64,000 nucleotides of DNA from a virus (IMGVR_UViG_3300021400_000056:30581-94580), one strand, 5' to 3'; shown: positions 4,129-57,600, numbered from the stretch's first letter. A program made the numbers and translations. The notes: generated from the sequence alone by a model not told the origin.

Positions 4129-4129
4129 A

Positions 4130-4404: not shown

Positions 4405-4578
4405 TTATAGCTCTCCTTTATAAGCTAAATCACAAATATACTCAGTTGCATCGCCCCAACTCATGTCATGGTCTCCGTTTACCAGTTCCTCTACTCTGTC
4501 GACAAGCATCTCATACTCATATCCGGTATCGATCGCCGTTTCATGCAGATCGATTGACAAGTCTCTCATTTTAACCAT
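4405..4578 (-). CDS. Hypothetical protein, paralogue of 5573-5758
   Basis: Shared TGY..E.L...YICD.A pattern; GAGGTG RBS. Confidence 0.6.
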   Translation of the reverse strand: MVKMRDLSIDLHETAIDTGYEYEMLVDRVEELVNGDHDMSWGDATEYICDLAYKGEL

Positions 4579-5272
4579 CACTTTCACCTCGAATTTCTTT
4601 AATGTAAGGAAGAGAGTTAAGAATATCAACGAAGGTGTTCCACTCGTCAAGTTTGTGACCGGTTCTCTGATTGATCATAGACATGACGTTTTCATAGTTC
4701 ATAGTTACTGTACGTCTCTGATTGTATGAGCTCGGAAGCAATTGAATCATCTGCCACCATGCGGCTTTAGACTTCTTTTCTTTTTCTATATACATATTCC
4801 TCGCCACATTTAGAAATTTGATTGTGACTTCCAGACAGTCATTAATGGCGCTATCTGTCAACTCTTCATGGCTGAAGTCATCCAGAGTAAATTCTTTTGC
4901 GTGAATCTTATGCATTGTAGAGCAAGAATTAGCAACCGTGCCAACCTTATAGGTATCAAACTCCTTCCACCAGTACAGTGGCGCCGTAATATCCATACTG
5001 ACAAATATCTGTCTAAGATACTTCCGATGCTCTGTACCCGCTTTATAAAGTCTACGCATAAGGTCTAAATCATTTTTACCAATTTTGATATTCAAATTAT
5101 ATTTATCGTTCCATTCCCAATATTTATCCTGCATTGGATCATCCGGAGCAAAATTTTCAACCACATTGAACGCCACACTACTATCACTCTTACTGTGGCT
5201 ATTCATAGGATTTCGCATACCTCTGATAGCATGCTCAAAACCCCAGACGTCAATGTTTTCTACTTTAATCAT
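4571..5272 (-). CDS. ThyX-like (flavin-dependent thymidylate synthase fold) phage protein
   Basis: AIRGMRNP..S, HRKYLRQI, APLYWWKEFDTY, NSCSTMH, LLPSSY, R..HKLDEW motifs typical of this divergent phage family. Confidence 0.6.
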   Translation of the reverse strand: MIKVENIDVWGFEHAIRGMRNPMNSHSKSDSSVAFNVVENFAPDDPMQDKYWEWNDKYNLNIKIGKNDLDLMRRLYKAGTEHRKYLRQIFVSMDITAPLYWWKEFDTYKVGTVANSCSTMHKIHAKEFTLDDFSHEELTDSAINDCLEVTIKFLNVARNMYIEKEKKSKAAWWQMIQLLPSSYNQRRTVTMNYENVMSMINQRTGHKLDEWNTFVDILNSLPYIKEIRGESDG

Positions 5273-27000: not shown

Positions 27001-27277
27001 GCGTTTTTGATGTTGCTCTAATCTGAAAATCAACACTTACCGCATCGGTTGGCACATCATAGGTCGCTTCTTTCGTCTGACTGGCACTTCCACCATCTGT
27101 TGTGCCATCACTGCCAACGATCCAACCTTTAGCACCACTTCTTTTATACAACCATTTCCATTCGAATTGATCCACATGGTTTTTTTGGCTGCCAGTCACG
27201 GTCCACGTAACGACGAAGGTTCGTTCTGTTCCAGCTTTAAGCGTAATCTTGCTGGGCTTAATTGTAATTTTTGACAA
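21005..27277 (-). CDS. Large minor tail protein with multiple fibronectin type III-like repeats
   Basis: Repeated R.F...W....V..YE..W.Y...P..A..V.FRVKP units; SDWSE and SEWSE; follows the tape measure. Confidence 0.8.
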   Translation of the reverse strand: MSKITIKPSKITLKAGTERTFVVTWTVTGSQKNHVDQFEWKWLYKRSGAKGWIVGSDGTTDGGSASQTKEATYDVPTDAVSVDFQIRATSKTHKVKTTKTVKGKKKEVEETKHYFSTTKWGSAGVASVKVDKLVKKGYYSLSKNYTYNASSSYPLSVDVTPHLSTAPDKKNFSWVTNFEVTWEFYVNEGGRKLWRTGDATSSIPRDTTTVVYTGVIPNSFEKLRVVTKPTSADSSVVAQNVEKQYDSSLTKTIRQAIADSIHIFRYPHGDNTVMAEWRLTPSDANLDGFTCKFETLTEGNGSGSGARWTNETTMDIDPDQWMMGSIYVETPEYATRAWSKEVEKTVEKHGTYVPTKAEKFAQKVINKKDPITYLIKHGKAKNKIEATVLYNKYMETVATLRDKQAKAYAKVTTGTVTEVQTGTERYQTGTKNVETPSKFYYSEEYTIPEGASEIRVTITPKSAETSGYLETSVTSEPYKVVIDTKQVAQSSIRFTLIPNTRRSFVAQWNKIEDPNVASYEYEWGYRIAGLNMEFWGADTGTLSQDAPAFHTPIYEAPENAQAVLFRVKPVPKHTNDFLGVYCSPATEVIMPLPKRSIPNNLIRVVWPEAERTDKTLTAAWSLHLWDPDTKKQTDDLVGKVAGYEVVWRYVIYTKELGTLIREGETQSINDKQVISDDYTVPANAKHAQFRVRPVPNNEDLDFEGIWSEWVDYLFSVPSRTINSGSLNVIYSEGTDRKLKVSFTISNESHVKDYTYSYQTYVRGVLSEPTEGTVTQKIFEIDAPTDADEIRLKIKPNDTSGSNAYFVSTYSSEFIYSLKPGTRSVQDIAMFLQRGSKTTVVATWGIDDERNVDSYSFKWRYKIDAVWYDGSSGTTSYESKVCTYDAPAQADMVEVKVTPVPKYSLAFEGKDSEYEIFIMPSSTVPETPAVPSLSINKFRLTAMVDSYDEKASMIEYEFINDVDTDDTFYGNAEILFNRATYVQDIEAGYGIRARARALNDDGEASDWSEYTTDPVYTIPLPPEGVPVVNALSATSVEVLWNQVDGATSYVIQRTTKARYFDAAPDLVEETTITSGIRAEIQGLEPKSETDGNTGEWYFRIKAVNDASGESEWSEIAYIVLGTVPDAPTTWSSSTTPVTSDDVYLNWLHNSEDGSAQSGAIIEMTVNGVKETHEIVDEYELFEPYLCETTVEIKKSFYVIRLGEYEEYTTRTIDLTDIVPEDLRHNISVASLAIADAEDAETYEQIVGEGEFSLNGSEISFKYPTGSSTSEVVWGNAFLIIQLIGVENTIDVSSVPAILKPDGYVGITKLGDNDEYTSKIVSSRIEDNTVYFVLDIPTDSTGFYTTATLSFYKDDVIITEPTEMIYSSETVTIESEPQTIDNYSGTQFISVDISEIPKNQRNGLLAELYSTYNPTRRTVLKNETPYTWSYTKTLNKTRHWNLMIGDYQKYKNKTVDLSNVSGLSDVLDDYNKIYKVEMGQTRSGWTIGEYETDSSIEGECDFSINNNILTYQYPQGTDPNPSGPHLTSSDHYLWLTWKDESSSKIELDGTMLPDGIRDIEHNMKLSVTDAEGNSADDKITSWSFENDVMTINYKNSDDDSLLNCTVSVTANTDNYEINGDMLIHYVYKVSNLDAAPIALEHILSVSKDDIYHRSLANNFSFQRGGVSYYLIPAGTYEAGAVITWKVKTKGVLPDYGPFSGERQINIYTPPTIRVTIGSGYRWLSDDFEFREDNIYTNGSITASSIEGRLETFPMILDIHSGPTTQKPLVYVLSIISNDTYDDIDDTGRIIHIRSGQEIYKRYIYTNERDFITLIMANELNLDNLRSYTLTVTVNTDVGLTAETTSDFVVDWDMDADVELDASLTIDEDAAVVYLNPSATNEQGYYLNHFSLSVFRREFDGGLTEIATDLANGDNITVIDPHPALDYARYRIVAIDTSTGRMFYEDLAPQPIGITDIIIQWDESWSGFDTDDFPSNLDEAPYKGSMLRLPYNIDESESNDLDIELVNYIGRKHPVSYFGTHVGQTASWKTDIAKTDKETIYALRRLAVWPGDCYVRSPSGVGYWAHVKVSFDISHLEPIVPVSLDITRVEGGT

Positions 27278-35783: not shown

Positions 35784-37688
35784 TCAAGGATTCTCGGGAT
35801 CCTCTTCGCCGGTCGTGGACGTTGCAGCGCCCTTCAGCACGATTGCAGAGTAAGGACGAATCAGAGCACCGGAGATGCGGGTCTCGATCAGGTATTTCTG
35901 CTGGTTGTAGTCGATATCGAAATCATCGAACATGTTGACTTCGCCGCCCTTATCAGCACCGATGTTATAGTCGTTCAGATTTACGATGATCCCATACACA
36001 GCAGCGCCATCGATCTTGTAGTTGTCAAGAACCGGGCAAGGAACGATACGGGAAACTCTCATTCTTCTAGCCAGAGCTGCCTCGTCAACATACAGCGGAT
36101 GTCCAAGACCATCCTCAAGCAGCATCATCTCGGTGAGAAGCGCCTCGGAAGTGAACATGACCGGCTGACCGGAACCCTTATAATCCTTACGAGCGCGGAT
36201 AGCAGCTTTGATCATGTTCTTCGCAAGATCCTCAGAAGAGGAGCCAGCAGCGACAGCAGCCTTGATGGTGTACAGATCCTTATCAGTAGCGATAGGACGA
36301 ATATGATCCTCTTTGATGTGATCATCGTCAGAAGGGAGACGACCATCACCGATCAGAACCGCACGAGCGATTTCCTCGTCAAGCATCATTCTCATCTCAG
36401 CCTTAAGCCAAGCAACAACATCGAAATCGGTGATGTCCAGAACATCATCACGATCCATCTTCTGTTTCTTGTAGATAGTCTGAGGATCAGTGCTTCTCTT
36501 CAGCAGGCTGAACACCTCGTTCTTCTTCATCTTACCTTTGATGTAACCCTTCGCGCGAGCTTCATCCTCGGTGATGTTTGCGAACACGGATTTGATTCTG
36601 GAGAAAGGAGTATGGTGCGTTCCATCCATAACAACCTTCACCCAGTCATTATCTCTTCTTACAAACTCCGGGACATTGTTGATCGCACGGGCATCCGGGA
36701 ACAGATAGTTCAGGCCGGCAACACCATAATCCATATTCTCAGTGGAAGCCCAGACATCTTCTTCATCGTCTGCATGAGCAAGAACGCCACCCTCAAGATG
36801 GCTCTCAACAGCGTCCTTAAGACTTCCAAGTCTCTTAGCATCGGAGAAGATCATCTCCATATCTTCATGGGACAGATAGTTACCATTTCTCTCAGCGCCT
36901 TCAAATACGTTGTGCTTCATATCTTCTTCGTCTCCTTCATCTTCTTCGTCTTCATCAACACCGGCGTCCTTCAGAGCTTCGCCGATCAGTGCGTATACAA
37001 CAGTCTTCTGCTTGTCGGTAAGAGTGTTAAACACGTCTTCGACAGTCTCATCATCCTCAGTCTTAGGGTTAGAATTAACTTTCTTTTCCTCAGCCATCTT
37101 CTGGTCTCCTTTCGAAGGCGTCTCTTCGGCCTTCATATCATCTTTAGTTTCTTTTTCTTCAGCTTTTGCATCCTGCTCGGTATCTTCCTTCTTCTCATCT
37201 GCATCGTCTTCTTTATCTGCATGAAAGAGATCAAGAAACTCACCGGTAGTGATGATAGCTTCATCATCTGATTCTTCGTACTCATCAGCGCCATGCGCCA
37301 GAAGCAGAGAATCGATAAATGCACCGGGATTCGCCCCAGCCGTAACAAGACTTACTTCTTTAATTACGCCGTGAAGCACATCCCCAGATTTCTGCTTAAG
37401 CTGGTTAGCCCAGATCGAGAGACTTTCAATGTCTCCGTGAGCAACAAGCTTCTTAGCAAGTTCGCCCTTAGGCGTATCGTTAAAATATCCATATGCATAA
37501 ACGCCTTCCGGTCTGTTTTCAAGGATGGCGTGTCCTAAAACCATTTCCGGATCGTTATGAATATGGCTCCATACAATCGGGACTTTGGCTCCATCGCAAT
37601 CTTTAAATGCATCTCTTCTGATAGTACGCCCATCAGAGCATCTAAGATCGTTTTTGGTAGCCCATCCACCAAAGTCATATTTTTTCAT
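35784..37688 (-). CDS. Prohead protease-scaffold-major capsid fusion (HK97 fold)
   Basis: N-terminal protease (W.H.H, LSI, EVSLV..GANPGA), acidic linker, capsid C-terminus (FDDFDIDYNQ.KYL.ETR.SGAL). Confidence 0.92.
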   Translation of the reverse strand: MKKYDFGGWATKNDLRCSDGRTIRRDAFKDCDGAKVPIVWSHIHNDPEMVLGHAILENRPEGVYAYGYFNDTPKGELAKKLVAHGDIESLSIWANQLKQKSGDVLHGVIKEVSLVTAGANPGAFIDSLLLAHGADEYEESDDEAIITTGEFLDLFHADKEDDADEKKEDTEQDAKAEEKETKDDMKAEETPSKGDQKMAEEKKVNSNPKTEDDETVEDVFNTLTDKQKTVVYALIGEALKDAGVDEDEEDEGDEEDMKHNVFEGAERNGNYLSHEDMEMIFSDAKRLGSLKDAVESHLEGGVLAHADDEEDVWASTENMDYGVAGLNYLFPDARAINNVPEFVRRDNDWVKVVMDGTHHTPFSRIKSVFANITEDEARAKGYIKGKMKKNEVFSLLKRSTDPQTIYKKQKMDRDDVLDITDFDVVAWLKAEMRMMLDEEIARAVLIGDGRLPSDDDHIKEDHIRPIATDKDLYTIKAAVAAGSSSEDLAKNMIKAAIRARKDYKGSGQPVMFTSEALLTEMMLLEDGLGHPLYVDEAALARRMRVSRIVPCPVLDNYKIDGAAVYGIIVNLNDYNIGADKGGEVNMFDDFDIDYNQQKYLIETRISGALIRPYSAIVLKGAATSTTGEEDPENP

Positions 37689-37708: not shown

Positions 37709-39079
37709 TCATCCAGTATCAAGTTCACTAAACTTCTTCTTAAAGAACGGTACGTCATCTTCGTTAGCCTCTTCTTCAGGCGTGAGTTCAGTTTCAAGAC
37801 CTTCTTCTACTGGTTGCTCTTCATCAGCAAATTCATCCTCAGGCATCGCGTAAGGATCCATTAATGAGGGGTCCATTCCGTCATTCGGCTGAGAGATGTT
37901 ACTGTTACGAAGCTCATCGGCCTTCGGATCAACTGACGGCTTCCAACCGATGATCGCTCTAATTTCATTAGACGTTACGACCTCGGCCTGCTTGAAGTTC
38001 GTAGTGATTGTAGAAAGCTGTTCAATAGTTACAAGTTTAAACGAATCTCTAAAGAACCTGATCGCATGGCCCTGCGTTATAGCAGTCTTTGTGAGGAATT
38101 TCCTCTCCATTTCTTCAGTAATAGCTGAAAGAATTGGTTCAATTGTCCTGCTATAATAGTTATTCATCGTCTTTTCGTCTGCTGTACCATCGAATACACT
38201 TTGCGTCAGTCCTAATTGGTTGTATAGCATGCTCATTAGTTCTTTCGCCTGGTTCCAGTAGGTATTTTCGACTGGACGATTAAGCTGGGTTATTCTTTCG
38301 GTTCCATCGGTATAAGCAATACCGTATTTGGATCCGGTTAACTGCATTTCGATTTCTTTTCGTCTCTTTTCAGCTTGTTCTCTTCTCGTCTCTGTCTTTA
38401 CGACATACGGAAGCTGAATGATAAGATCGAGTTTTCCAGAAGCGTTTCTCTCGTTAAATACATCAAGATTTGCAAGAGTATGTTTAAGCCTCTGCAAGGT
38501 TGAGTTCGGTTCGTTCATTACCTCATAGAGTGGATTCTGCACAATCGCCACAAAAGATTTAGGAAGAACCAATTGTTCTCTCTTTCCAGTATTCTCGTTG
38601 TATAGATCCACTTTTACATGTTTAGGGAACCACTGAACAACCTTGCCAACACGTAAGGTTTCAACGTCGAATGCACCAGTGTATGGATTTGTTGATGTGT
38701 CGGTAGGAACAATAGCAATACAACCATCTTCGCAAAGACTTTGAACTGCATCTTGAATAAAAGCCCTTCCCGTCTGATCGATGTTAGCCGATCTGGAAAG
38801 AGCTCTGTTAAGCGCAGAATATACAGTGTCAACATATCTGCCATTATTCTTATCAATTTTTACATGTTTAACATCTATCTGTGCGGCATCTATTGCGATT
38901 CTACAAATTACAGACGCTACAATTGATCTATCTCCGCCGCTAAGACTTAGAATTCTTGATCTATCAGGTCGAAAATATGATCCACTTCCGTAAGACTCAT
39001 AAGTGGTCCTATACGGCGTCGGATCTCGCCCCATGAAGGCGTTCCATCCGTGTTGGAGCCTGGTTATTATTGATGGCAT
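37709..39079 (-). CDS. Portal protein
   Basis: ANIDQTGR, GKLDLIIQLPY, YGIAY.DGTE, NEIR; lies between TerL and capsid. Confidence 0.92.
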   Translation of the reverse strand: MPSIITRLQHGWNAFMGRDPTPYRTTYESYGSGSYFRPDRSRILSLSGGDRSIVASVICRIAIDAAQIDVKHVKIDKNNGRYVDTVYSALNRALSRSANIDQTGRAFIQDAVQSLCEDGCIAIVPTDTSTNPYTGAFDVETLRVGKVVQWFPKHVKVDLYNENTGKREQLVLPKSFVAIVQNPLYEVMNEPNSTLQRLKHTLANLDVFNERNASGKLDLIIQLPYVVKTETRREQAEKRRKEIEMQLTGSKYGIAYTDGTERITQLNRPVENTYWNQAKELMSMLYNQLGLTQSVFDGTADEKTMNNYYSRTIEPILSAITEEMERKFLTKTAITQGHAIRFFRDSFKLVTIEQLSTITTNFKQAEVVTSNEIRAIIGWKPSVDPKADELRNSNISQPNDGMDPSLMDPYAMPEDEFADEEQPVEEGLETELTPEEEANEDDVPFFKKKFSELDTG

Positions 39080-39100: not shown

Positions 39101-39715
39101 TTACTTACGGTAATTGGCAGCTGCCTGTTTACCAATATATCCAGCGTCGAGAACTAATCCGCCATAGCCGTTTAAAAGAAGCGTGTCAACAGTACGAAGA
39201 CCTCGATTAGTTGTTCTTCCACTCATTCTGCTAACCGGTGTTTTCCAACTCTCAACCGGAACAACTGCTTCTAGTGCTCTACGGCCGAGCTTCATCTCGG
39301 ATCTCTTTTTCATGTAATCTGCATTGTACTGATAGTTTACACGTTTTGTATCGTGGTACATCTTTCCAAGTCGGGTTTTAGACGCATTCGTTAAATCTTC
39401 CTGCGCTTTCGCATGAATTTTACTTACGGATCTGGCATGCCTTGAGCCTACAACCGAAGACACTTTCTGACGAAAGCCCTTGGCCTGCTTAAAATCTTTC
39501 GGAATTGTTTTAATACTATCGCCAAAAGCTTTAACACGAATCCCCATCCGTCGTTTAATTCCGGTTTTAGCCTGACCAACATTTTTTCCGGTTTCGCCGC
39601 CCTTCCTAGAATATCCAGTTCCATACGGCTGATACCGCCTAACCCCCCAGTGCATGCCTTGCACACCGTGATGGGCTAAGAATCTATACTGCCCTACCGC
39701 ATAATAACTTGCCAT
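39101..39715 (-). CDS. Basic HHG-motif head-associated protein
   Basis: FLAHHGVQGMHWGVRRYQPY. Confidence 0.85.
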   Translation of the reverse strand: MASYYAVGQYRFLAHHGVQGMHWGVRRYQPYGTGYSRKGGETGKNVGQAKTGIKRRMGIRVKAFGDSIKTIPKDFKQAKGFRQKVSSVVGSRHARSVSKIHAKAQEDLTNASKTRLGKMYHDTKRVNYQYNADYMKKRSEMKLGRRALEAVVPVESWKTPVSRMSGRTTNRGLRTVDTLLLNGYGGLVLDAGYIGKQAAANYRK

Positions 39716-39726
39716 TTTTATATCTC

Positions 39727-41460
39727 CTATTCGAACGCCTCAAGATTAAGTTTATATGCTACGTAGGCGTCCATCATTGCCGCAACATTATCAATCTTTT
39801 GCTCATATCTCTTCTTAAGCAATTTTCTATTTCCATTTGTATCTTCAAGGGTGATGGCGTTTCCCATAGTAAAAGTCATGAGTTCTTCATCAAATAGCAG
39901 GAACCTATCCTCTGCAAGCTTCTTTAGTTCCCCAAGGGGCACCGTTTCAGTTTTAACGCCCTGTATGACCTTAACTACTCCAAATTCTCCGTTCTCCCTA
40001 CACCATCTTTCAACGAATCCTTTAGCGTTATACGGGTCATATCCAAAGCACTCGACAGTATACTCCATTCTACTAATATGCTCATCGAGATCATCATAAA
40101 CATCCATCATGTTGAGAACTACACCATCAAACACGATAAGGCTTCCTTCAGCAATGAATTCATCGTATTTAAGCCTCATAGCGGGTGGGCATTTATCAAG
40201 TGTTCTACTAGTTATATAGCTTCTAACTTTGACACCAAACTTATGATCTGGAAGAGGAAATAAAAATGTAAATGCACAGAAGTCATCACCCTGCGAAAGG
40301 TCAGCACCAAGTGCACAGCTCATTTGCCAAAAGTCTCGTTTTCTATGGGGCTGAATTTCTTCAAAAGTAAAGAAATATGTGTATCCTTCTTTTGGTATTC
40401 CAAATCTTTTAGCCAAGATATCGTTTCTCGCCGCAGGCGCTTTCTCAGCTCTTTCGACATCTAGCTGGTAAGTCTCATAAGTAACTGTCTTTCCAAGGTT
40501 TGGATTTGCTTTTACCCACATAGCGGGGTCAGCTACTTCAGAAACGTCATCGAGCTTGTAATACCAAATCGATACATGCGGATTGATGTATTCTCCTTTA
40601 AGAATGTCCATCAATTCCATTTTGATTGTATCGCCAGCACCGTTTCTGACAGTTCCTTCTGAACTCGTTGCAACGATTAGATAGTCAGGAAGTTTGGAAG
40701 CACCCTGCTCAAGAGCACCGATTGGGTCTTCTCTAAGATCTCCTGACAGCCACTCATCTACCGATGAAATCTTAGGTCTAAATCCCTGAAGTTTATTAAT
40801 GTTCATCGGAAGAACTTCAAGAAGGGAATTCGTAAGGAAGTTCTCGATTCCTTTCTTTGTCGATGCAAGCTTCACTCTTTTAGCCTTTGATCCGGTTGTG
40901 TTCTGAATCGATCCTTCTGTTAGAAATTTAAAAAGAGGCCCACGAGCTCTGACAATACTTGTTCGTATCGGAGCTAAGACCTCTTCTGACTGTTTCATTG
41001 TAGGTGCTGTTGCTATTTGATGAGTAGTTGAAGTATCGATGTTTAAGAAGTACGAATGAATCGTTGACGCGTACATTGATTTAGCGGCGCCTCTGGCAAC
41101 GATCAAATATTGCTTATTAATTAGCCGCTTCTTAATCATTCTTGTTTCGTATCTCTTTGTTTCAGGATTGTAAATACTTCTCTCAACAAAGTAATACCAT
41201 CCGAAAATCTGTTCCCCCCAGAGTTTGAACGTATCTAGTAAGAACAGATCAGACCCATCGGTAAGGGTCAGCTCGTTCTCGCAGTAAGCCACCCATCCTT
41301 CAACCGCTTCATCATCATAGAATATGTTTGGGTTTCTAATTAGGTTATCGATCCTGTTCATCTCCATAGAGATCTCTTTGTTAACTGGGATCTCACCTCT
41401 AAGAACCTTATCCCGAAATTCGCCATAATATATCGGGATAGCATTGTTAGATAGAGACAT
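39727..41460 (-). CDS. terL: Terminase large subunit
   Basis: Walker A ARGAAKS, Walker B SSVDEW, nuclease GADLS.GDD and KID. Confidence 0.95.
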   Translation of the reverse strand: MSLSNNAIPIYYGEFRDKVLRGEIPVNKEISMEMNRIDNLIRNPNIFYDDEAVEGWVAYCENELTLTDGSDLFLLDTFKLWGEQIFGWYYFVERSIYNPETKRYETRMIKKRLINKQYLIVARGAAKSMYASTIHSYFLNIDTSTTHQIATAPTMKQSEEVLAPIRTSIVRARGPLFKFLTEGSIQNTTGSKAKRVKLASTKKGIENFLTNSLLEVLPMNINKLQGFRPKISSVDEWLSGDLREDPIGALEQGASKLPDYLIVATSSEGTVRNGAGDTIKMELMDILKGEYINPHVSIWYYKLDDVSEVADPAMWVKANPNLGKTVTYETYQLDVERAEKAPAARNDILAKRFGIPKEGYTYFFTFEEIQPHRKRDFWQMSCALGADLSQGDDFCAFTFLFPLPDHKFGVKVRSYITSRTLDKCPPAMRLKYDEFIAEGSLIVFDGVVLNMMDVYDDLDEHISRMEYTVECFGYDPYNAKGFVERWCRENGEFGVVKVIQGVKTETVPLGELKKLAEDRFLLFDEELMTFTMGNAITLEDTNGNRKLLKKRYEQKIDNVAAMMDAYVAYKLNLEAFE

Positions 41461-41484
41461 TTTGGATCACCTTCCTACTTATTA

Positions 41485-42066
41485 CTAATTCTGATAACTT
41501 TTACGATATTCTTCGGTGTCATACTTTATTTTTTTAGCATATACGGGATTGTCCACCATTTCCTTAAACGTTCCTTTAATAGTTTTTCTAATAAATTTTT
41601 CGTCAGCGGATTGCTTACGATACGGTGTATCTCCATATTTTTCCATTGCGACCTGAACCGCCTTATAACCACGGAGGGCAATAGCATATTCGAGTTCAGA
41701 TTTTTTCTGAAGCTCCATCCTACGCTCTTTGCTAACATTTGGCCCCAACGAATAATTGTATCTCTTATACTCGTTTGATGTTAAGTGGTGTATCTGCGCG
41801 TTCTCCTGAATTCTTCTCGCTTCATAGGAGACAGTTTCCCCGCTAATTTTAGAAGCTTTCTTCATTAATTTTGCAGATTTATATCCGTCTCCACTGTAAG
41901 CCGCTCGAAGTGCTTTTTTGCGAACTCTGTCTAATTTTGCTTTTTTAAATGTTCCGGTTTTTCCACCTTTTCTATCATATCCGGTCCCATACGGCTGAAA
42001 ACGACGTATTCCCCAATGCATACCACGAACACCGTGATGTGCTAAAATATACTGTTTCATCTCCAT
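41485..42066 (-). CDS. Basic HHG-motif head-associated protein
   Basis: ILAHHGVRGMHWGIRRFQPY. Confidence 0.85.
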   Translation of the reverse strand: MEMKQYILAHHGVRGMHWGIRRFQPYGTGYDRKGGKTGTFKKAKLDRVRKKALRAAYSGDGYKSAKLMKKASKISGETVSYEARRIQENAQIHHLTSNEYKRYNYSLGPNVSKERRMELQKKSELEYAIALRGYKAVQVAMEKYGDTPYRKQSADEKFIRKTIKGTFKEMVDNPVYAKKIKYDTEEYRKSYQN

Positions 42067-42299
42067 TTAAGTTGTCTCCCTCGAGCAGCGTTCCACTTAT
42101 CTATGTCGTCCATTGGGCAAAAATACGTTACTTCACCAGTCTTTTCGTTAACGGCATAAAACGGATCGTTATAATCAACTTTTTCGCCACGCCTCAATGC
42201 TGTAAATATATAGTACTTTTCGTCATACAAGCAGCATTCTTTAACGATTAAATCTGGATGCTTCTTTTTAAAAAGTTTATATGCGTCGTTTACCGTCAT
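42057..42299 (-). CDS. Small protein, candidate immunity partner of the upstream papain-fold toxin
   Basis: ATGA overlap with the toxin gene; YAVNEKTGEV pattern seen in PepSY/YrhB-like immunity proteins. Confidence 0.6.
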   Translation of the reverse strand: MTVNDAYKLFKKKHPDLIVKECCLYDEKYYIFTALRRGEKVDYNDPFYAVNEKTGEVTYFCPMDDIDKWNAARGRQLKWR

Positions 42300-43261
42300 C
42301 CTTTAATCACCTCCGAAACTGCCTTCTTGTCTACACGAACGTTATCGAGTCTGGTGTATTCGGCTGATGTGCAGCTATCTAAAATTTTAGATACTTTATC
42401 GCCTTTATATGTTTTATTAGTCTGACAATCTCGTATTATAACCTGCCTATTCTTAACTTCATAAACGACACTATGCCCACCACCAGCGCCCCATGTAACC
42501 GTAAGATTACCACGTGCACCATCGGGTTGCTTTAAGATGGCTTTTACAGTTTTTTGGGTGCATTCAGTATTTTTACCTCGAGCTGCTTTTAAAACGTCAT
42601 CATATGTCGAAGCAGTGTACGCGTTCTTTGTCTTAGCATCCGGATACCATCGTCTAATTTCATTTGTGTAATATCCGCTGCTTGCTTTTTCAGCTGTAAC
42701 ATCGTAACCTCTTCTTCTCAAATCATATGTCGTTGTGCAAAGCATACAATTCGACTTTGTATTTGCATCAAAGTTTCTATATGAAGGGTTGACCGCCGCC
42801 ATATCTTCTTCCTCTGTCCAATGACGATCTTTAATTTTTAACTCTTCATTTTCTGCATCACTTTCAAGCTCTGAAATTCGTCGATCGTTCATAAATGTCT
42901 TCGTGTACGCAATGGCTGCTTCTCCAGCACGAATAGCGTCTTTTGCTAATTCTAAACGATTAACTTCCAGATCATCTCGAACCGTTTTTCTGATGAATTT
43001 AAATAACTCTCTTTTATCCGATTTCTGATGCTCTTCCTCGCTAGTCTGAAACTGATACGGGCTATATACGTTAAACTCCGAATCCTCGTTCGGATCGACA
43101 AACTCAGGATCTGCAAGGCTGCTGTCTCCGGCAATTCGTTCGATTCCTCTTTTCCCATCTTTGCGAATATAACCCGTGCCATAGGGCTGAGAAGTTCTAA
43201 GCCCCCAGTTCATTCCTTTCTTGCCAAAATGAGAAATATACTGATTATTCATCGAGCTCAC
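42296..43261 (-). CDS. HHG-motif protein with C-terminal papain-fold toxin domain (Tox-PL/glutamine deamidase-like)
   Basis: YISHFGKKGMNWG; NCMLC...LRRRGYDVTA...GGHSV...DCQT (Cys-His-Asp/Gln). Confidence 0.75.
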   Translation of the reverse strand: MSSMNNQYISHFGKKGMNWGLRTSQPYGTGYIRKDGKRGIERIAGDSSLADPEFVDPNEDSEFNVYSPYQFQTSEEEHQKSDKRELFKFIRKTVRDDLEVNRLELAKDAIRAGEAAIAYTKTFMNDRRISELESDAENEELKIKDRHWTEEEDMAAVNPSYRNFDANTKSNCMLCTTTYDLRRRGYDVTAEKASSGYYTNEIRRWYPDAKTKNAYTASTYDDVLKAARGKNTECTQKTVKAILKQPDGARGNLTVTWGAGGGHSVVYEVKNRQVIIRDCQTNKTYKGDKVSKILDSCTSAEYTRLDNVRVDKKAVSEVIKG

Positions 43262-44910
43262 CTCCGGCCACTAAGCAGATCTCTAACAAGGTCTTCGCCG
43301 AAGTCAATATTGCTAGTCTGTCTTGTAAGATCACTTGCTTTCTTAGAATAGGCTTTCAGATTCTCTGTAGCTGTCTTATTATAATTTCTTGCTTCAGCAC
43401 TCGGATTAAGAGTTAAAGGACCGGTGCTCGATCGTCTTGACGAAGAACTTGACGTAGGACCCGGAAGAGCCGCTCTAGAACTTCCGCTAACGGGAATTGC
43501 TCTGCCATTTACGACTTCAGCATCAATAACTCTTGGTCTATTCGAGGACGATCTGTCGTTTCTGCTATTCATGGTAAGCCGAGGCTGATTGTACTGAGAA
43601 CCGCCGAGTTCTTTATTAGAAGACGCTCTTTCTGACGACGCATCTTTCCTGTAACTCTTAGCGTTCAAATCAGAATTTCCCCATTTTGAACCAACTGAAG
43701 CGGACATCCTTCCGTAATCTCTTCTTAGCATCGCCTCTACCTTATCTTTGGGCTGCGTAGAGTAAGGAGAGGTTCTATTCGCCCCCTGAAGACCTAGATT
43801 CGTCCATTTGTTATTAAACGTTTTCGTAGACGAAGAAGAATCACTGGACTCTGATTTATTTTGTGAATCTTCCTTCTTAGAATCTTCTTTAGGAATTGAC
43901 TTATCAATTGTGGCTTTCTTAGTAACAGAATCAAATGCTTCTTTCTTCTCGGAAGAAGACATACTTGACCAAAGATTCGAGATGGACTTTGCGTCTGCAC
44001 TATTGATAGCTTTCTCAATCTCTGTAGGATCGCGCTTGATCATTCCTTCAATATTTTTCTGGTTATTAAGTCGATTGAGGGCTTTCTGAGTTTGATCAGC
44101 GTTCAAAGATCCTTCTCTTGAACCTCTTAGAACTTCTTCAGCTGAGCCAGAGTTAACTAAGCGATTAGCTGCCTCCTCCGCCGCTTTCTTTCCTTCATCA
44201 AGGATCCTATTCTCAATATTAGCCTGATTATCAAGTCTGTTCTTAGCGGTTTGGACCTGATTAGCGTCAAGCTTCCCGTTCCGAATTGCGTTAAGAACTT
44301 CTTCGGCTGAACCAGAGTTAACAATTCTATCTGTTTCTTTACCCTTTTTCTTCTCAAACCCAAGCGCTTTAGCGGCATCGTCAATGTTACCTTTAAGTTT
44401 AACGCCCTGACTAACCAATTCATTAGCAGTGCCAATATACCCTGCAATCTTCTTAACTTTTTCCTGAATCTGATCTGCTTTCTGAAATCCAGCGTCAATC
44501 TGTCTCTGCCTAAGTTCAGCTACTTTGGTTTCTTTTCCGGCTCTCTCAAGGAATTTATCAATGTCATCATTCGAGAATAGTTCTTTTCTTGCAAGGAGCT
44601 TCTCAGCATCGCCGGACTTCATAATTTCTTCTTTTTCTGCTTTTACTTTTCGTGCTTTTTCAAGACTAGCGGCTCTCTTCTTAGCTGCTATCTTCCTTTT
44701 ATGCGCAGTCCTAATCCCTTTAACGCCTTCACTAATTTTGTTGCCTACTCGTTTGGCAAGGCCGACTTCTTTACCGGTTTTGCCACCTTTTCTGGGACCC
44801 GTGGTGGAATACGGCTGAAAACGACGTATTCCCCAGTGCATTCCTCTTATCCCAAAATGGGCCAAGCAGCAATCTCTCCAATCGTTATTGCCGTAGTAAT
44901 TAATCTCCAT
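43258..44910 (-). CDS. HHG-motif protein with internal ~52-aa repeats and low-complexity tail
   Basis: CLAHFGIRGMHWGIRRFQPY; VNSGSAEEVL twice. Confidence 0.85.
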   Translation of the reverse strand: MEINYYGNNDWRDCCLAHFGIRGMHWGIRRFQPYSTTGPRKGGKTGKEVGLAKRVGNKISEGVKGIRTAHKRKIAAKKRAASLEKARKVKAEKEEIMKSGDAEKLLARKELFSNDDIDKFLERAGKETKVAELRQRQIDAGFQKADQIQEKVKKIAGYIGTANELVSQGVKLKGNIDDAAKALGFEKKKGKETDRIVNSGSAEEVLNAIRNGKLDANQVQTAKNRLDNQANIENRILDEGKKAAEEAANRLVNSGSAEEVLRGSREGSLNADQTQKALNRLNNQKNIEGMIKRDPTEIEKAINSADAKSISNLWSSMSSSEKKEAFDSVTKKATIDKSIPKEDSKKEDSQNKSESSDSSSSTKTFNNKWTNLGLQGANRTSPYSTQPKDKVEAMLRRDYGRMSASVGSKWGNSDLNAKSYRKDASSERASSNKELGGSQYNQPRLTMNSRNDRSSSNRPRVIDAEVVNGRAIPVSGSSRAALPGPTSSSSSRRSSTGPLTLNPSAEARNYNKTATENLKAYSKKASDLTRQTSNIDFGEDLVRDLLSGRR

Positions 44911-44929
44911 TTTGAATCCCTCTAAATGC

Positions 44930-46264
44930 TTATCTAGCAAGTCGATTTATCAACTTTCTTCCACTCATAATTTCTTCATAATTAGCATTCGCTCTGGTGT
45001 AATTGTATTTAACACTTTTACGTTTTCGCGAATTCTGCTTCTTTCTGGCGTCTAAGCTTCGTAATACGGCTTCGGTTCTACGAGCATTTCTCGCCCTGCT
45101 GCTAGAATCTTTTGAATGTGCAGAACTTCTTCTCTGACTATTTTTAGCCATCTTACTTCTAGCTGAGGCTTCTGCTGCTCTTGCAGATTTTTCAGACTTG
45201 CTCATCGACTTGGATTCGCTAGATTTAGATTTTTCGCTTTCGTGTCGTTTAGACGATCCGAGTTTCTCATTAACTAAATTCTGAATCTCAGCATAATCAT
45301 AACCTTCTTTAGCAAGTCTCTTTTTTCGCTCTTCGCCGTTACCGTAATTTCCGTTAATTACACTTTCAACGAGTTTATCGACTTTTTCCTTATCCGCCTT
45401 CGACTTTGTTTCGGTCTTCGGCGCATTAATGTTTTTCTGCTGCTGATCGGATAATGTAGAACGCGTTGCCGCTCCATTTTTAGCCTGCTGATCAGACAAG
45501 GTAGAACGCGTTGCCGCTCCATTTTTAGCCTGCTGATCAGACAAGGTGGATGCCCCGTTTCTCTGAGCTGCTGGGTTCGTAGGTCTAGCGGCATTGATAT
45601 TCCTTCTCTGCTGATCTGAAAGGTTTGAATTTGCGGCTTTAATGTTCGCTGCTTGCTGATCGGTAAGCCAGTACTGTGTCGACGCCTTTAAATGCTTATG
45701 CCATTTCATTCCTTTAACACCAGAATGCGTTAAATATCCGGTTTCAAAAGCACTAGAAAATGCGCTCTGTTCCAACGTGTCAAGCCGTCTAATGTACTTG
45801 TCAACTTTTCGTTCAAGTTTCATATTCCTGTACTCCAACTTACTAACCTTCATTTTCCAAGCGTTTTGCTTTTTAACAATTCTGGCAATTCGTTTATCGA
45901 GTTTGTATGCTTTTTTCATCGCTCTTGACTCACGTCTTGTTGGTTCAAGATTGTAAAGCATTTTTCGTGTTCGTGCGCCTTCAACTCTTTTTGTCAGCTT
46001 CGCACGTCTTCTTTCAAGGCCAAGCCTCTTCATCTCTCGCCGTTGATTTCTAGTAGAATTAGAATAATTATTCAGTTTATCCAGTTTATTGTTATTCTTT
46101 TCTATCTTCCCTTTTGTTTTTTCAATTTTCTTTTCTAACCGAACTTTTTTCGGAGAATATCCTCCTTGCCCATATGGTTGAAATCGTCTAACGCCCCAAT
46201 GCATTCCCGAGATGCCGTGATGCGAAACGAAGAACTCGTTATCACTTATTGCAAAGTAGTCCAT
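44930..46264 (-). CDS. Protein with two HHG-type motifs, LSDQQ repeats and a CW_7 (Cpl-7) cell-wall-binding repeat
   Basis: VSHHGISGMHWG, LTHSGVKGMKW; VINGNYGNGEERKKRL...YDYAEIQNLVN. Confidence 0.85.
   Translation of the reverse strand: MDYFAISDNEFFVSHHGISGMHWGVRRFQPYGQGGYSPKKVRLEKKIEKTKGKIEKNNNKLDKLNNYSNSTRNQRREMKRLGLERRRAKLTKRVEGARTRKMLYNLEPTRRESRAMKKAYKLDKRIARIVKKQNAWKMKVSKLEYRNMKLERKVDKYIRRLDTLEQSAFSSAFETGYLTHSGVKGMKWHKHLKASTQYWLTDQQAANIKAANSNLSDQQRRNINAARPTNPAAQRNGASTLSDQQAKNGAATRSTLSDQQAKNGAATRSTLSDQQQKNINAPKTETKSKADKEKVDKLVESVINGNYGNGEERKKRLAKEGYDYAEIQNLVNEKLGSSKRHESEKSKSSESKSMSKSEKSARAAEASARSKMAKNSQRRSSAHSKDSSSRARNARRTEAVLRSLDARKKQNSRKRKSVKYNYTRANANYEEIMSGRKLINRLAR
45456..45545. repeat. 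Two exact 45-bp tandem repeats (coding TLSDQQAKNGAATRS)
   Basis: Direct comparison of 45456-45500 with 45501-45545. Confidence 0.9.
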
Positions 46265-46267
46265 GGA

Positions 46268-46900
46268 TTAACCTCCAATCAACCGCCTAATTGCTTTTGA
46301 ACTGGAAAGCGAGGAAGACCGTGTGACACTAGTACCGCGACTCATTCCGCCAGATCTAATAGATCTTCGATTTGCATTTGCCAACCGTTTATGTTTAAGT
46401 CCGGCTCTCCTATTCGTGGAAATATCCTGATCCGTGCGCTTTCGTACTCTAGTGGACAAAGATCTATTTCCGAAACGAAGGGCTTTTCTTGCCGCCATCT
46501 CTTTATAGACGCTATTTGACGCAAAAGAATTTGCAGCATCGTCATGTCTTTCAATGGAGGCTTTGTGTTTCTTCCATTTCATTCCTTTCTTACCGTAATG
46601 AGCAAGATACTCTCCGCCTTTGTAATATCTAAAATCGTTATTTGAATACATAATCTGATCCTCATTGTGAGACAAATACTTCTTAGGAACGTATTTAATA
46701 AACCGATTCTCTTCTCCTACTGTAAAATCAGAGAAGCTCATTCCATACTTTCTCATTCTCTTAAGTATTGCTTTTGCAAGTTCTTTTTCATTTGCCGGCG
46801 ATACATAATTAAAAAACCTTATGGCGGATCTAACGTGCCTCTTATCCGGCATTGGATACTTCTTTAACTTTGGAAGACCGTACTGCTTATTGTCTTTCAT
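46268..46900 (-). CDS. DUF6582-like domain plus internal HYG motif, basic protein
   Basis: YGLPKLKKYPMPD..HVRSAIRFFNYV; YLAHYGKKGMKW. Confidence 0.8.
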   Translation of the reverse strand: MKDNKQYGLPKLKKYPMPDKRHVRSAIRFFNYVSPANEKELAKAILKRMRKYGMSFSDFTVGEENRFIKYVPKKYLSHNEDQIMYSNNDFRYYKGGEYLAHYGKKGMKWKKHKASIERHDDAANSFASNSVYKEMAARKALRFGNRSLSTRVRKRTDQDISTNRRAGLKHKRLANANRRSIRSGGMSRGTSVTRSSSLSSSKAIRRLIGG

Positions 46901-47118
46901 GACTTATCTTCTTTCATCGAATCAAGAAAATAGCCAAAAGCCGTCTTCTCACCTTCAAGTTTTTTACCAGCAGGAATTCCTGTTCCGACACCATGTTTAA
47001 CACGATCACGCTCTTCGGCTTTCTTTGCGTTATTCCATTTATCCATTGTCCCGACTAAATAGCCAGTAATCCTTCTAATTCTCTCGAAGCGAATTCCTTC
47101 GCCCATCTTCATATCCAT
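46897..47118 (-). CDS. Stand-alone C-terminal glycyl-radical domain of class III ribonucleotide reductase (NrdD)
   Basis: RIRRITGYL...WN.AK.AE..DRVKH. Confidence 0.85.
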   Translation of the reverse strand: MDMKMGEGIRFERIRRITGYLVGTMDKWNNAKKAEERDRVKHGVGTGIPAGKKLEGEKTAFGYFLDSMKEDKS

Positions 47119-47654
47119 TATAGTGCGGTTCCTCTCATTTTACTCATAGCTGCAAATACTGATTTACTACGTGCCTTTCCTTTTACGGATTTAAACGATG
47201 AGTCAATCATCTTAGCTATTTTTTCTTTGGCTTTCTTTTGTCCAAGTTTAACTGATTTTTTAGCAGATCCCTTTTTAGATGATGCCGGCTTTACATCACT
47301 GGCGCTTATTGGCTCATACTGTCCTCTATTAGCTTCTACTCTAAGACCGCTCGTTGTAGCAAGCATTCGATTTCTTCTGTAAATATCCTCAATCGTTCCG
47401 CCTTTTGCACTTTTTCCGCCGCCAGCTCCACCAGACTTAGACCTAGCTTTTTTATTTAGCATTTCGGCCCTGGCTCTGTTTCTGGCGTCAGCGTCCATGT
47501 CTCTTGCCATCTGCTGCCTGAGTCTGTTTCTTCTAATAGCTTTAATCTCGGCTGCGCTAAAGCCTCCCCTTTTCTTCTTCCATTTCATTCCTTTGACACC
47601 GTAATGAGCAAGATAGTCTCTATAATCGTTACGGCCAAAATAATCATTACCCAT
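47118..47654 (-). CDS. Basic HYG-motif protein
   Basis: YLAHYGVKGMKWKK; Lys/Arg-rich. Confidence 0.85.
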   Translation of the reverse strand: MGNDYFGRNDYRDYLAHYGVKGMKWKKKRGGFSAAEIKAIRRNRLRQQMARDMDADARNRARAEMLNKKARSKSGGAGGGKSAKGGTIEDIYRRNRMLATTSGLRVEANRGQYEPISASDVKPASSKKGSAKKSVKLGQKKAKEKIAKMIDSSFKSVKGKARSKSVFAAMSKMRGTAL

Positions 47655-54613: not shown

Positions 54614-57600
54614 TTATCCGATAATCACATGATAGCCCTGAATCGTATCGGGAATTGTAATGAGGTTAAGATTATCCGCAATAATAGCGGCTGTATTAAG
54701 TCCAGTAATCGTCATTGTCTTATTAGTTTCATCAAGCGTATAGACTAGATACTTAAGATCCGGTTCGACCATGACGATGTCAAAGAACGCATAGGTGTCA
54801 AAGCTCTCCTGTACGTTAGTGAGATCTCTATCCCATCTGATAAACTCACCGTCTGTACTTGTAGGAGTCTCTCCAGTATAGACAGCATCCTGACCCTGAA
54901 TAACGTTACTCGTCTGAAGAAGTGTATCTCCATTATAGAATCGTACCGTATAGACAGGTAAATACTTAGCATTAATTGTCATATCATGCGTGATAGGCTG
55001 GGTAAGATCATAGTCCCACGCATTAGCTACCTGTCCGCTGCTACGTCTAGGCATATCCTGTCCCCATGTTACAGTACTACCCCAAATAACGTTAAGATCA
55101 GTTCTAATAACCGTACCATCATTTCTCCACGTTACCGTGTACTTGGCGATCGCTTTGCTATACGCAGCATATACAGATGTATCGGTATTAATGTTCTTAA
55201 TGCAATCCGGATCGTTTTCTTCTGCGTCCATGGCAAGATTCCAACCGATCGGAGTATACGCATACTGTCCATCCGGGCTATTAGTTCTTGCGGGAACTGC
55301 AGGCGACGTATCACTAGTTACACCATTAATATACTTAACCGTCTTAACTGTACTCTCGCCGTTCCATGTCTTATATGACAAGAAGCTCTCGACATTATCC
55401 GCAATAACCTCAAGATACGGGTACCTGGTCTTATACCATTCAATCTTTGCTGAAGTAATCGTAGCAATGTGAATCGTACCAGAAACTTGAGCAGTGTCGT
55501 ACTCTCTGTAGACCCATTCTCCGTCAGCACTCTTTTCTCTCGAAACACCGATCATCGTGTCAAGAAGATCAAGAAACTCCTCAATTTCTTCAGTACTTTC
55601 CATTTCAAAAGCTAGACCCTCGATGTTGACCTGAGAGCCGGGTTTGACCGCTTTAAGAATTGTGATAGGATCGACAATCTCAGTGTCAATGTTGGCAAGC
55701 ATTAGCCTTGAAATGTTAGAGTAGTCAGCGACGACAAACTCGGTTAATTTCTTAAGATTAAGTAGTGTTAATGTAGTGATCGTACCAGGAAGATGAAGTG
55801 TAGTAATATCTCCGCCATCAGCAAGTTCAATACCGGTTATTGCACTTCCCTCAAACAGAGCGGTCTTAACTCTTGGTGAGTTCTCAAGATTGATCGTCAT
55901 CGCAAGGTTAGGACAGTTCCTAACGTCAATCGTCTCAAGAAGTGCACAGTTTCTAACGTCAAGAACTTTCATGTTAGCGTTAGAATATCCAGCAGCTCCG
56001 TCACCAATCTTAAGGTTCTTAAGTCTTATTGCTTTAGAGAAATCAAGTTCGTTCGGGTAGAATACCGACAGATCACCAACATCCGTAATAACATCTGCAG
56101 AGTAGATCCAGGTTTCCATTTCGGTAACGCCACTAGGCGCAACGTAAGTAAAGGACACCGGAGTATTCGCTTTTGTTCGGCTAAGCGAAACTGTTGTGCC
56201 GCCACCGAAACTAACGCCAGCATAAAGATCAATTGCTGATGTAAGTGTAAGCGTGCCAGAGTTAAACAGTCGCATACTGATCGTTGAGCTGGCTGCGTCT
56301 CCGGTTACATACTTGCTATCCATGTATTTAAACCGGTTAGAAAGCCACCATTTTCTCTGCTCGGTTTTGGCTCCCTGCATCATCGTCAGATATCTGTCAG
56401 TTCTGATAAGCTCGCCTGTTGTTTCGTCAACCGTAACAGGATTAGTAAGAGGTGTTAAATACTTAACCTCTGAGTCTTCGTTATAGACCGCTTCTCCCCA
56501 TTTTGATTGATGATCTTCATATCTGGCTTCAATTTCCTTATACGAGAATTCTTTATTAGTTCTAAGATTCCTGTACATCAGAGTAATCTCAGATCTAAAC
56601 GAGTCACGAAGGTTAACCCAAAGCACTGAATCCTGAGCGTTAAACACCGGAGCGTTTGAACTGCCAGATGTATCTCCACTGATAACACCACTAACAGTAT
56701 CCGTATCTTCAAGCGTGTAATCGAACATCAGCACGCCAGAGTTGTTTGTACCGATAGCAGTATCTGCATCGTAAATCTCAATAGCGGCTTTCCTGTCGAT
56801 TGCGCTTCCTTCAAGAGTTACCGGACTGCCTTTAAAACCAATGAACATGTTCTTCGCTCTTGAGTCGATCATGAGGAAGAACTCAGTGAAGATGTAATAG
56901 AACACTGCAGAATCTACTTCAAATCGATCAGCAAACTCCGCTCTGAACTTTGTAAGCCTATACGCCGGCGTGTCTTTAGTAAACGTAAAGATCTTATTAC
57001 CAGTGCTCTCTCCGCCAACTACTTCATCCTCAACTGTATAGCTCGTATCATCGGAGTAGTTATTGACGGTAATGGTTGTGTTAAGCTTATACACAACTGG
57101 TTCAGGAAGAGCCTCGTTAGTCGCCTGATTTCTATCGGTAGATTTAACCCAACTGATAAGCTCCTTAAGCATTGTGTAATCACGCCACTCGTCGCTGGGC
57201 ATTCTGGCCTCAAAGTCGTCATACCAAGTCGGATAATATTCCTGCTTGATCTCATCCCAAGAGGTCGATGTAAAGTCATCGTCTTTAAACTTTACATTGT
57301 CGCTATTGTTTCTCTCCCACTCCCATGACTGCATATTGTCATGGTAGCCAAGCGGCGCCGGAGCACGTTTCGGTAAGTTGAAATTGTACTTACCCATGAA
57401 CTTCGTTTCCGCTGTTGTAGGATTGTACCAGAACATGACAATCGGAATACCCTCGATGCCATGTCTGACTTTTGGATTCGCCTTCATCTCGTCGTTCTTC
57501 CAAGGAGAGATGTCGTTAAAGAGCATCGCCAAACCGACGTTATTATAAGATTCGGATGAGGCAACGTCAGCTTTTAAGACGAATCTATTAAAGGGTATCG

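Follow-up and report, generated by a model that had tools for sequence, protein, structure and literature searches.

A short tag shared by seven otherwise unrelated head-region proteins of a tailed phage, most likely marking them for loading into the head and trimming by its protease

Why do seven proteins that show no similarity to one another carry the same short peptide, and why do their genes surround those for the large terminase subunit (TerL) and the portal protein? This question is raised by IMGVR_UViG_3300021400_000056:30581-94580, a 64,000-nucleotide stretch of viral DNA referred to below as the window. The window takes up bases 30581-94580 of its virus record, which is 94,580 bp long, complete and flanked by direct terminal repeats. 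The source is a complete 94.6-kb tailed phage of the lineage that includes 1706-like phages, FP_oengus and actinophages of clusters AM, AU, DJ, BI and others. The shared peptide, called the tag here, most likely marks the seven proteins for loading into the phage head and for trimming by the head protease. A four-step reading of how this would happen, comprising docking, charge attraction, cleavage and exit with the DNA, is given a probability of about 0.6.

The tag in the window and across relatives

Six-frame translation of the window reveals eight copies of the motif G-x-x-G-M-x-W, all on the minus strand, at 39647, 42013, 43205, 44833, 45701, 46196, 46574 and 47580. They are spread over seven open reading frames (ORFs) at 39.1-47.7 kb, flanking TerL and ahead of the portal gene, and [LIV]-x-H-x stands directly before every copy. 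Fifty shuffles yielded a mean of 0.06 copies and a maximum of one. The original prediction of eight copies in seven genes around TerL and portal is thus upheld; the coordinates it assigned to the motifs, however, are gene ends rather than motif positions. No additional copy was found across the whole 94.6-kb genome. The motif is identical to Pfam DUF7211 (PF23847), a 25-position model without a function in Pfam and with a gathering score of 27 bits. At the protein level, four of the seven proteins reach this cut-off (44.4, 39.3, 35.3 and 27.6 bits), while the other three (26.5, 22.5 and 16.5 bits) fall below it with the same profile positions aligned; in a six-frame search of the genome, five of the eight copies exceed it. 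Identity among the copies is 0.51 at third codon positions and 0.73 at positions 1 and 2. Since synonymous positions differ, the repeat is maintained as a peptide and not as DNA.

Once the tag is masked, the seven protein bodies fall into seven BLAST clusters with zero pairwise matches. Six of the seven proteins have an isoelectric point (pI) of 9.8-10.8 and a net charge of +23 to +61, the exception being a toxin with a pI of 8.4. TerL, portal and the capsid polyprotein are all acidic, the last having a pI of 4.6 and a net charge of -56. The predicted combination of unrelated and mostly very basic downstream sequences is therefore present. The cargo of this phage consists of one papain-fold toxin, one cell-wall-binding protein and five basic proteins lacking known domains. 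An AlphaFold2 model of a 62-residue tag peptide, built from a 144-row alignment, has a mean pLDDT of 62 and no secondary structure in the tag. In the model of the toxin, residues 1-109 stay below a pLDDT of 50 and the C-terminal domain reaches 83-96. Because it has no fold of its own in either model, the tag behaves as a linear motif that requires a partner.

At the protein level, the head genes share 40-52% identity with those of the GenBank phages Arthrobacter phage Truckee, Gordonia phage Petito and Lactococcus phage 1706. Actinophage clusters AM, AU, AW, DJ, CC, EL and BI, together with 1706-like and Faecalibacterium phages, have been placed in one supercluster (bioRxiv 10.1101/842583). 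Relatives in bacterial assemblies belong mostly to gut Clostridia (Ruminococcaceae, Oscillospiraceae, Lachnospiraceae, Christensenellaceae), and a true prophage relative resides in a complete Faecalibacterium prausnitzii chromosome.

To describe the tag across this lineage, 80 IMG/VR loci were gathered by means of the capsid fusion. With four GenBank phages and the window, they provide 189 distinct tagged proteins and the consensus (D/N)-E-L-Y-H-[HY]-G-[VI]-[KL]-G-[MQ]-K-W-G-V-R-R-[YF]-Q-N-x-D-G-S-L-T. The tag histidine lies at median residue 13 from the first possible start, and at least 4-5 residues always precede it. With the tag masked, the 189 proteins form 110 cargo clusters, 95 of them singletons. 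A Pfam search with 137 representatives identified Gln_amidase (4), GNAT acetyltransferases (2), and one each of Ntox50, ADP-ribosyltransferase toxin, 2H RNA-ligase-like and CW_7 domains; more than 110 of the representatives have no domain, and the DUF7211 model matches 132 of them. Gln_amidase domains occur in at least 10 loci. The MuF domain (PF04233) was found neither in the window proteins nor in the 137 representatives. The variability of C-terminal domains across relatives, which had also been predicted, is evident from these 110 clusters, toxin domains included. The predicted label of effectors suits only a minority of the cargo; five of the seven window bodies are basic and domain-less, and may have a structural role inside the head. 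At least 13 PHROG families carry the tag, the sole named one being phrog_35934, a "virion structural protein". Among 1.84 billion representative sequences, the tag profile matches 53,527 clusters, 21,362 of them at E<=1e-10.

The association of the tag with the head module is equally consistent. When IMG/VR was scanned for nothing but the tag, by means of a degenerate DNA pattern, 106 loci were returned, 98 of which hold homologues of TerL (63-78% identical), portal or the capsid fusion; the remaining eight are short. Conversely, when long loci from bacterial assemblies (prophages or metagenome-assembled genomes) were sought by the fusion only, 48 of 50 proved to have tags. Of the 556 strict tags in the combined loci, 555 lie on the strand of the head genes, with 256 upstream of TerL, 240 between TerL and portal, and only 10 elsewhere. 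The eight copies of the window are the maximum among the loci, and none of its five basic bodies has a homologue among the roughly 270 related loci. Tags within one phage are more alike than expected by chance at every variable position.

In existing annotations, the tagged proteins Truckee gp9 and gp10 and Petito gp13 are described as "membrane protein", "acetyltransferase" and "RNA ligase", and the tag does not appear. The gene for Truckee gp6 has probably been called too short, as its annotated start, M-R-W-G, lies inside the tag.

Many relatives carry several tags in one protein. The top 150 profile hits have 2-5 tags with a median spacing of 212 residues, approximately the size of a single-tag protein, in a list biased toward multi-tag proteins because their scores sum. 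Each internal tag retains the acidic leader and L-x-H. In three relatives, multi-tag ORFs with up to four tags occupy the slot before the portal gene, replacing the row of separate genes; in one of them (L309), TerL is followed by a 1156-aa ORF with four tags and then by portal and capsid fusion. Another locus (L031:1536-3323, plus strand) encodes portal residues 1-393 in frame with a DUF7211 tag (His 416) and about 180 residues of cargo, so that tag and cargo are attached to the portal C-terminus, the end facing the head interior. This is either a natural fusion or the result of a lost stop codon or assembly error. In Petito gp13, a ligase-like domain is followed by the tag and then by a tail. 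A pure address would need one tag per protein, and a tag at each module boundary therefore fits a cut site or docking of each module. The polyproteins postulated in the original prediction agree with both the common two-to-five-tag proteins and the multi-tag ORFs in the TerL-portal slot.

Capsid polyprotein and hydrophobic-x-His sites

A possible link between the tag and head maturation is provided by the capsid gene. Its product combines a protease domain and an HK97-fold capsid domain in one reading frame, separated by an acidic spacer, and is 52% identical to proteins annotated as "major capsid and protease fusion protein". The protease domain matches TIGR01543 at residues 26-134 (32 bits, E 1e-7, below the equivalog cut-off of 59) and PF04586 weakly. 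The capsid domain matches TIGR01554 (28.5 bits, cut-off 27.5) and Phage_capsid (31 bits). The spacer holds five hydrophobic-x-His sites, at His 140, 164, 267, 282 and 313. Four such sites had been described at the outset; they are present, and the fifth is MKH/N, where the slash marks the presumed cut.

Alignment of 55 full fusions shows that these sites characterize the spacer as such. The spacers average 163 residues, of which 21.6% are L/I/V/M/F, and yet 307 of 324 spacer histidines (95%) have one of these five residues at position -2. The expectation that the L-x-H half of the tag equals the spacer sites is borne out by this count. Each fusion has 4-10 sites, giving 273 distinct 12-mers. 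Neither His 140, which directly follows the protease domain, nor His 282 varies among the fusions of Firmicutes phages and actinophages, and a further site is always found 7-30 residues ahead of the conserved L-F-P of the capsid domain. Positions P5 and P6 are mostly acidic in spacer sites, as in tags. When a hidden Markov model (HMM) of the tag was run over the fusions, its best local matches were spacer sites, such as E-L-Y-H/S-D and N-Y-L-S-H/A-D. In the cargo bodies, histidine makes up 1.2% of residues and only 16.6% of it stands in a hydrophobic-x-His context, which is not an enrichment. By analogy with the L/I-x-E site of T4 gp21, we infer that hydrophobic-x-His is the site of the maturation protease.

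In three fusions (L018, L019, L030), an acidic look-alike of the tag core H-G-V-K-G-M-K-W, namely L-A-H/A-E-D-Y-G-I-D-G-L-E-W, stands just before L-F-P. The idea that the tag copies the N-arm of the mature capsid protein is weak, as only 2 of 42 fusions have their top tag-HMM match at this junction.

A comparable site was observed at the start of the portal protein, where x(4-8)-R-L-[KQR]-H/[AGS]-W-N-A-F, a hydrophobic-x-His site followed by a small residue, occurs in 51 of 71 distinct portals. The remaining portals have N, K or Q in place of His, so the site is not essential. The portal N-terminus may be trimmed, as far as this pattern indicates.

Annotation of virion proteins in a relative also bears on the location of tagged proteins. 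ORF7 of Lactococcus phage 1706, directly upstream of the terminase gene, is a "structural protein" in GenBank EU081845 and carries two tags, I-L-Q-H-R-G-V-I-G-M-R-W-G and I-L-L-H-K-G-V-K-G-M-K-W-G. The same label is given to 1706 ORF75, a homologue of RNA polymerase with the leader S-L-Q-H/Y-G, encoded at the far genome end from the structural genes. A YonO-like polymerase has been reported in this lineage (bioRxiv 10.1101/842583), and the present genome encodes a candidate outside the window. Its N-terminus reads M-S-D-L-M-H-Y-G-T-P-R-H-S-G-R-Y-P-W-G-S-G. Of 28 related records, 23 contain a homologue, among them every one of the 13 that are near-complete, and 25 of 26 polymerase N-termini, that of this genome included, follow [LIVMF]-x-H-[YI]-G ... 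S-G-R-Y-P-W-G-S-G. The leader is a half-match only, and the DUF7211 model does not match it at E<=1. No L-x-H-x-G leader was found in the large window ORFs, namely the tape measure, the 2090-aa ORF and the 1948-aa CotH protein.

The tagged genes and their neighbors

The features are collected in Table 1. The toxin carries the papain-like Cys-His domain that had been anticipated, assigned to the Gln_amidase family (24.3 bits against a cut-off of 24.1; phrog_5234, 1e-14). The domain spans residues ~140-320, and N171-C172, H263 and D278 are invariant in the alignment. Foldseek returned AvrPphB, SpvD, the deamidase OspI and a papain-like toxin/immunity pair as best matches, at marginal E-values of ~1e-3 to 5e-2. 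The untagged 80-aa gene next to it has a sole homologue in the ~270 related loci (30% identity, E 1e-5; L095, 6127-6318), which lies directly after a homologue of the toxin. From this arrangement, the two genes are a candidate toxin-immunity pair.

The CW_7 cell-wall-binding repeat, also anticipated, is located at residues 296-335 of the 444-aa protein (59.7 bits, 2e-16) and is accompanied by short tandem peptide repeats. The 210-aa protein begins with a DUF6582-like domain, followed by a spacer-type site, Y-L-S-H/N, at residue 78, the internal tag and a basic tail; both of its Pfam matches are below cut-off. The body of the 560-aa protein, for which the ATG at 44910 is a more likely start than the TTG, is long, basic, helical and internally repeated. 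That of the 178-aa protein is basic and has no known domain. A whole-protein tblastn search with the 204-aa protein against the GenBank phages gave no match at E<=0.01, because the motif is too short, and sequence searches of the PDB with the capsid fusion and with a tagged protein gave no match.

Table 1. Features of the window, with positions counted from its first base; the polymerase is given in genome coordinates
Feature	Position	Strand	Details
Tagged protein, 178 aa, pI 10.8	47118..47654	-	Tag L-A-H-Y-G-V-K-G-M-K-W at 47577-47612; DUF7211 35.3 bits
Untagged 73-aa gene amid tagged genes	46897..47118	-	PF13597 33.1 bits, profile positions 533-562; R-I-T-G-Y motif
Two-module protein, 210 aa, pI 10.6	46268..46900	-	Internal tag His 101, 46571-46606; DUF7211 22.5 bits, DUF6582 22.1 bits
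Two-tag protein, 444 aa, pI 10.5	44930..46264	-	Tags His 15 (46193-46228) and His 180 (45698-45733); DUF7211 44.4 bits, 2 stretches
Tagged protein, 560 aa from TTG start	43258..44940	-	Tag 44830-44865; DUF7211 26.5 bits
Tagged toxin, 321 aa	42296..43261	-	Tag 43202-43237; PF15644 Gln_amidase domain
Untagged 80-aa gene, candidate immunity protein	42057..42299	-	4-base overlap with toxin stop
Tagged protein, 193 aa, pI 10.0	41485..42066	-	Tag 42010-42045; DUF7211 27.6 bits
Large terminase subunit TerL	39727..41460	-	TerL_nuclease 124 bits, TerL_ATPase 30 bits; tagged genes on both sides
Tagged protein, 204 aa, pI 10.6, between TerL and portal	39101..39715	-	Tag 39644-39679; DUF7211 39.3 bits
Portal protein	37709..39079	-	Phage_portal 63 bits; N-terminus R-L-Q-H/G-W-N-A-F
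Capsid polyprotein, 642 aa	35784..37712	-	Protease aa ~26-134; acidic spacer aa ~135-336 (nt 36705-37310); HK97-fold major capsid domain
2090-aa ORF directly after 1742-aa tape measure gene	21005-27277	-	No Pfam match; D-W-D-M-D-A-D near C-terminus
1948-aa protein, CotH kinase-like domain aa 1138-1336	54614-60460	-	PF08757 30 bits
918-aa YonO/QDE-1-like single-chain RNA polymerase candidate	Genome bases 1878-4634 (L271:1878-4634), outside window	-	D-F-D-G-D loop; helix-turn-helix domains at both ends

The 73-aa ORF is outside the tag system. The anaerobic ribonucleotide reductase NrdD is represented in it by the C-terminal glycyl-radical segment only, and no other NrdD sequence was found in the 94.6-kb genome. 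The ORF thus resembles a separately encoded "spare part", comparable to GrcA in the case of pyruvate formate-lyase. The 1948-aa CotH protein lies upstream of glycosyltransferase-like and repeat proteins, and its kinase-like domain is unusual in a protein of phage structural-protein size.

Interpretation and comparison with known systems

The lineage builds its head from a single protease-spacer-capsid polyprotein, and in the proposed mechanism the seven genes would encode head-internal cargo. The tag, of about 30 residues, is composed of two halves: acidic residues with L-x-H, resembling the spacer, and [HYF]-G-[VI]-x-G-M-x-W-G-x-R-R, found in cargo only. The tag would dock the newly made protein to the assembling prohead, the candidate partners being the protease groove, the spacer and the portal. 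The strongly basic bodies would also be drawn to the very acidic spacer. The HK97-type protease domain would then cut after His, which would remove the short leader, separate the modules of two-tag proteins and chop the spacer. The cargo would remain with the DNA and exit with it at infection. These steps do not stand equally firm. Loading into the head is the best-supported step and is well supported. Cleavage after His has roughly even odds because the next residue (P1') differs between tags and spacer sites. Delivery into the host is suggested by the nature of some cargos and by analogy.

Several observations weigh against this mechanism or reduce the force of the evidence for it. In 93% of tags, His is followed by H/Y/F/W and then by an invariant Gly, whereas 86% of spacer sites have S/A/G/N there; given this difference, the tag may be cut slowly, cut elsewhere or left uncut. 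Covariation between tag and spacer sites at P2-P6 within phages was sought, and none was found. A cell-wall-binding CW_7 protein is unexpected inside a head. The likeness of tags within a phage fits a shared partner, but could also come from duplication rather than a shared receptor. As regards the counts, the 324 spacer histidines come from related sequences (50-60% identical) and are not independent events, the tag-pattern scan that gave 106 loci used the M-K-W-G form and favored this lineage, and the tally of 556 tag positions includes some double counts, since some contigs were fetched by two routes. Finally, the "structural protein" labels in phage 1706 are depositor annotations; they are said to rest on mass spectrometry of purified virions by Garneau et al. 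in 2008.

The difference at P1' leads directly to the possibility of an anchor without cleavage, in which the tag is a pseudo-substrate or docking peptide on the protease groove, the inner face of the capsid or the portal, the bulky residue blocks hydrolysis, and the cargo stays tethered until maturation. About 25 strongly conserved residues after His exceed the needs of a cleavage site, the tag is an unfolded linear motif, and there is one portal-tag-cargo fusion that may be natural, all of which would suit an anchor. However, an anchor is needed only once per protein, whereas internal tags recur every ~200 residues in proteins that replace separate genes. The 4-5 or more residues always present before His, and the acidic P5/P6 shared with spacer sites, likewise speak against it, and this alternative is considered unlikely. 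A somewhat less doubtful, though still improbable, proposal concerns the role of the cargo. The tagged proteins may be structural internal proteins rather than effectors, that is, fast-evolving basic proteins that build the head or neutralize and condense DNA in the manner of a scaffold or core partner, without a function in the following host, and with toxins and enzymes as occasional passengers. The absence of domains from five of seven window bodies and from more than 110 of 137 representatives agrees with this, as does the charge of +23 to +61 against -56 for the capsid polyprotein. The lack of homologues of the five basic bodies is typical of sequences selected for composition and not for fold. 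Against it stand the recurrent domains with cytoplasmic targets in the same slot (Gln_amidase in at least 10 loci, Ntox50, ADP-ribosyltransferase, GNAT), the immunity-like gene adjoining the toxin, and the leader on the RNA polymerase of the lineage. This proposal is compatible with the four-step reading, as it addresses what the cargo does and not the way in which it is loaded.

Packaging is dispensed with altogether if the leader is a cytoplasmic pro-protein switch that holds toxins and enzymes inactive until a late cut at L-x-H. The site is indeed common to the protease's own polyprotein, and the toxin cargos and the adjacent immunity-like gene would fit. HK97-type proteases, however, work within assembled proheads, and here the protease is fused to the capsid protein. 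In addition, a leader of 5-25 residues beside a disordered region can hardly be expected to inhibit a domain far away from it, enzymatic domains are missing from most cargo, and ORF7 and ORF75 of phage 1706 are annotated as structural. Such a switch is thus very improbable. Apart from the shortness of the motif, nothing favors chance or the translation of a DNA-level repeat such as a recombination site or regulatory element. This explanation is refuted by the eight copies against 0.06 expected and by the 51% identity at third positions; the conservation of the motif at the amino-acid level from actinophages to Firmicutes phages and its 53,527 matching protein clusters also contradict it, leaving it a negligible chance.

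A wider claim can be made only tentatively, at clearly less than even odds. DUF7211 might be a portable signal for head loading and processing throughout a very large lineage of Gram-positive siphophages infecting gut Clostridia, lactococci and actinobacteria, with exchangeable modules delivered with the DNA and polyproteins cut at hydrophobic-x-His. Among these modules would be toxins, modifying enzymes, ejection or membrane proteins and, via a half-tag, the YonO-like RNA polymerase. Should the tag prove to be a loading signal, it would account for the function of the numerous small, rapidly changing genes that surround terminase and portal in a lineage abundant in gut, rumen and soil. It would further offer a simple sequence rule to recognize which proteins such phages bring into a host cell (toxins, host-modifying enzymes and perhaps a virion RNA polymerase), define hydrophobic-x-His specificity for a capsid-fused HK97-type protease, and provide a short peptide for packing foreign proteins into phage heads. 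Culturable relatives exist in Lactococcus phage 1706, the Arthrobacter and Gordonia SEA-PHAGES isolates and Faecalibacterium phage FP_oengus.

The tag itself is undescribed in the searchable literature beyond its Pfam listing. Pfam DUF7211 is the same motif, and its entry gives no function, context or partner. A search of that literature for DUF7211 or the motif found no mention; an Arthrobacter phage paper remarks on the capsid-protease fusion and not on the tag. Among the known systems compared here, reviews are available for that of T4 (PMC3012670, PMC9958956).

Virion-packaged RNA polymerases are represented by the N4 virion RNA polymerase (vRNAP) and crAss-like gp66. To our knowledge, no targeting signal has been described for the N4 or crAss polymerases. 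The present lineage resembles them in having a DxDGD polymerase, here with an L-x-H-Y-G leader, whose 1706 homologue is annotated as structural.

MuF-domain polymorphic toxins were reportedly described in temperate Firmicutes phages by Jamet et al. in 2017. Shared with them are head-module genes adjacent to the portal gene, variable C-terminal toxin domains and adjacent immunity genes, here a candidate one; delivery by the particle is presumed. The carrier, however, is a 30-residue linear tag instead of a folded head protein, and a toxin domain is present in one of the seven window proteins.

In the giant phages phiKZ and SPN3US, propeptide-bearing ejection proteins are cut by the prohead protease at S/A/G-x-E (PMC5694885, PMC7411985, PMC10052503). 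The similarity lies in many head-internal proteins, ejected cargo and one consensus site shared with capsid and scaffold, as is proposed here. These phages differ in protease family and site, and in having long propeptides without a single conserved tag. Moreover, their processing was shown by mass spectrometry, while in the present case it is predicted from sequence.

In T4, a capsid-targeting sequence (CTS) is found on the internal proteins IPI-III and Alt and is removed by the prohead protease gp21 at L/I-x-E. Like the CTS, the tag is a short N-terminal peptide common to otherwise unrelated, mostly basic proteins that vary from relative to relative, and it contains a hydrophobic-x-X site that matches, on the P side, those of the scaffold or capsid precursor. 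An ADP-ribosyltransferase, the activity of T4 Alt, is also among the cargo of relatives. Unlike in T4, there is no sequence similarity to the CTS, the protease is HK97-type and capsid-fused instead of gp21, and P1 is His and not Glu. The larger part of the conserved motif follows the presumed cut and would thus be retained on the mature protein, and the residue after the site differs between cargo and spacer. Proteins with several tags, arranged as "beads on a string", also set the present system apart, as does its occurrence in siphophages of Gram-positive hosts. The T4 CTS is the closest known system in principle, and the tag is its analogue, not a member of it.

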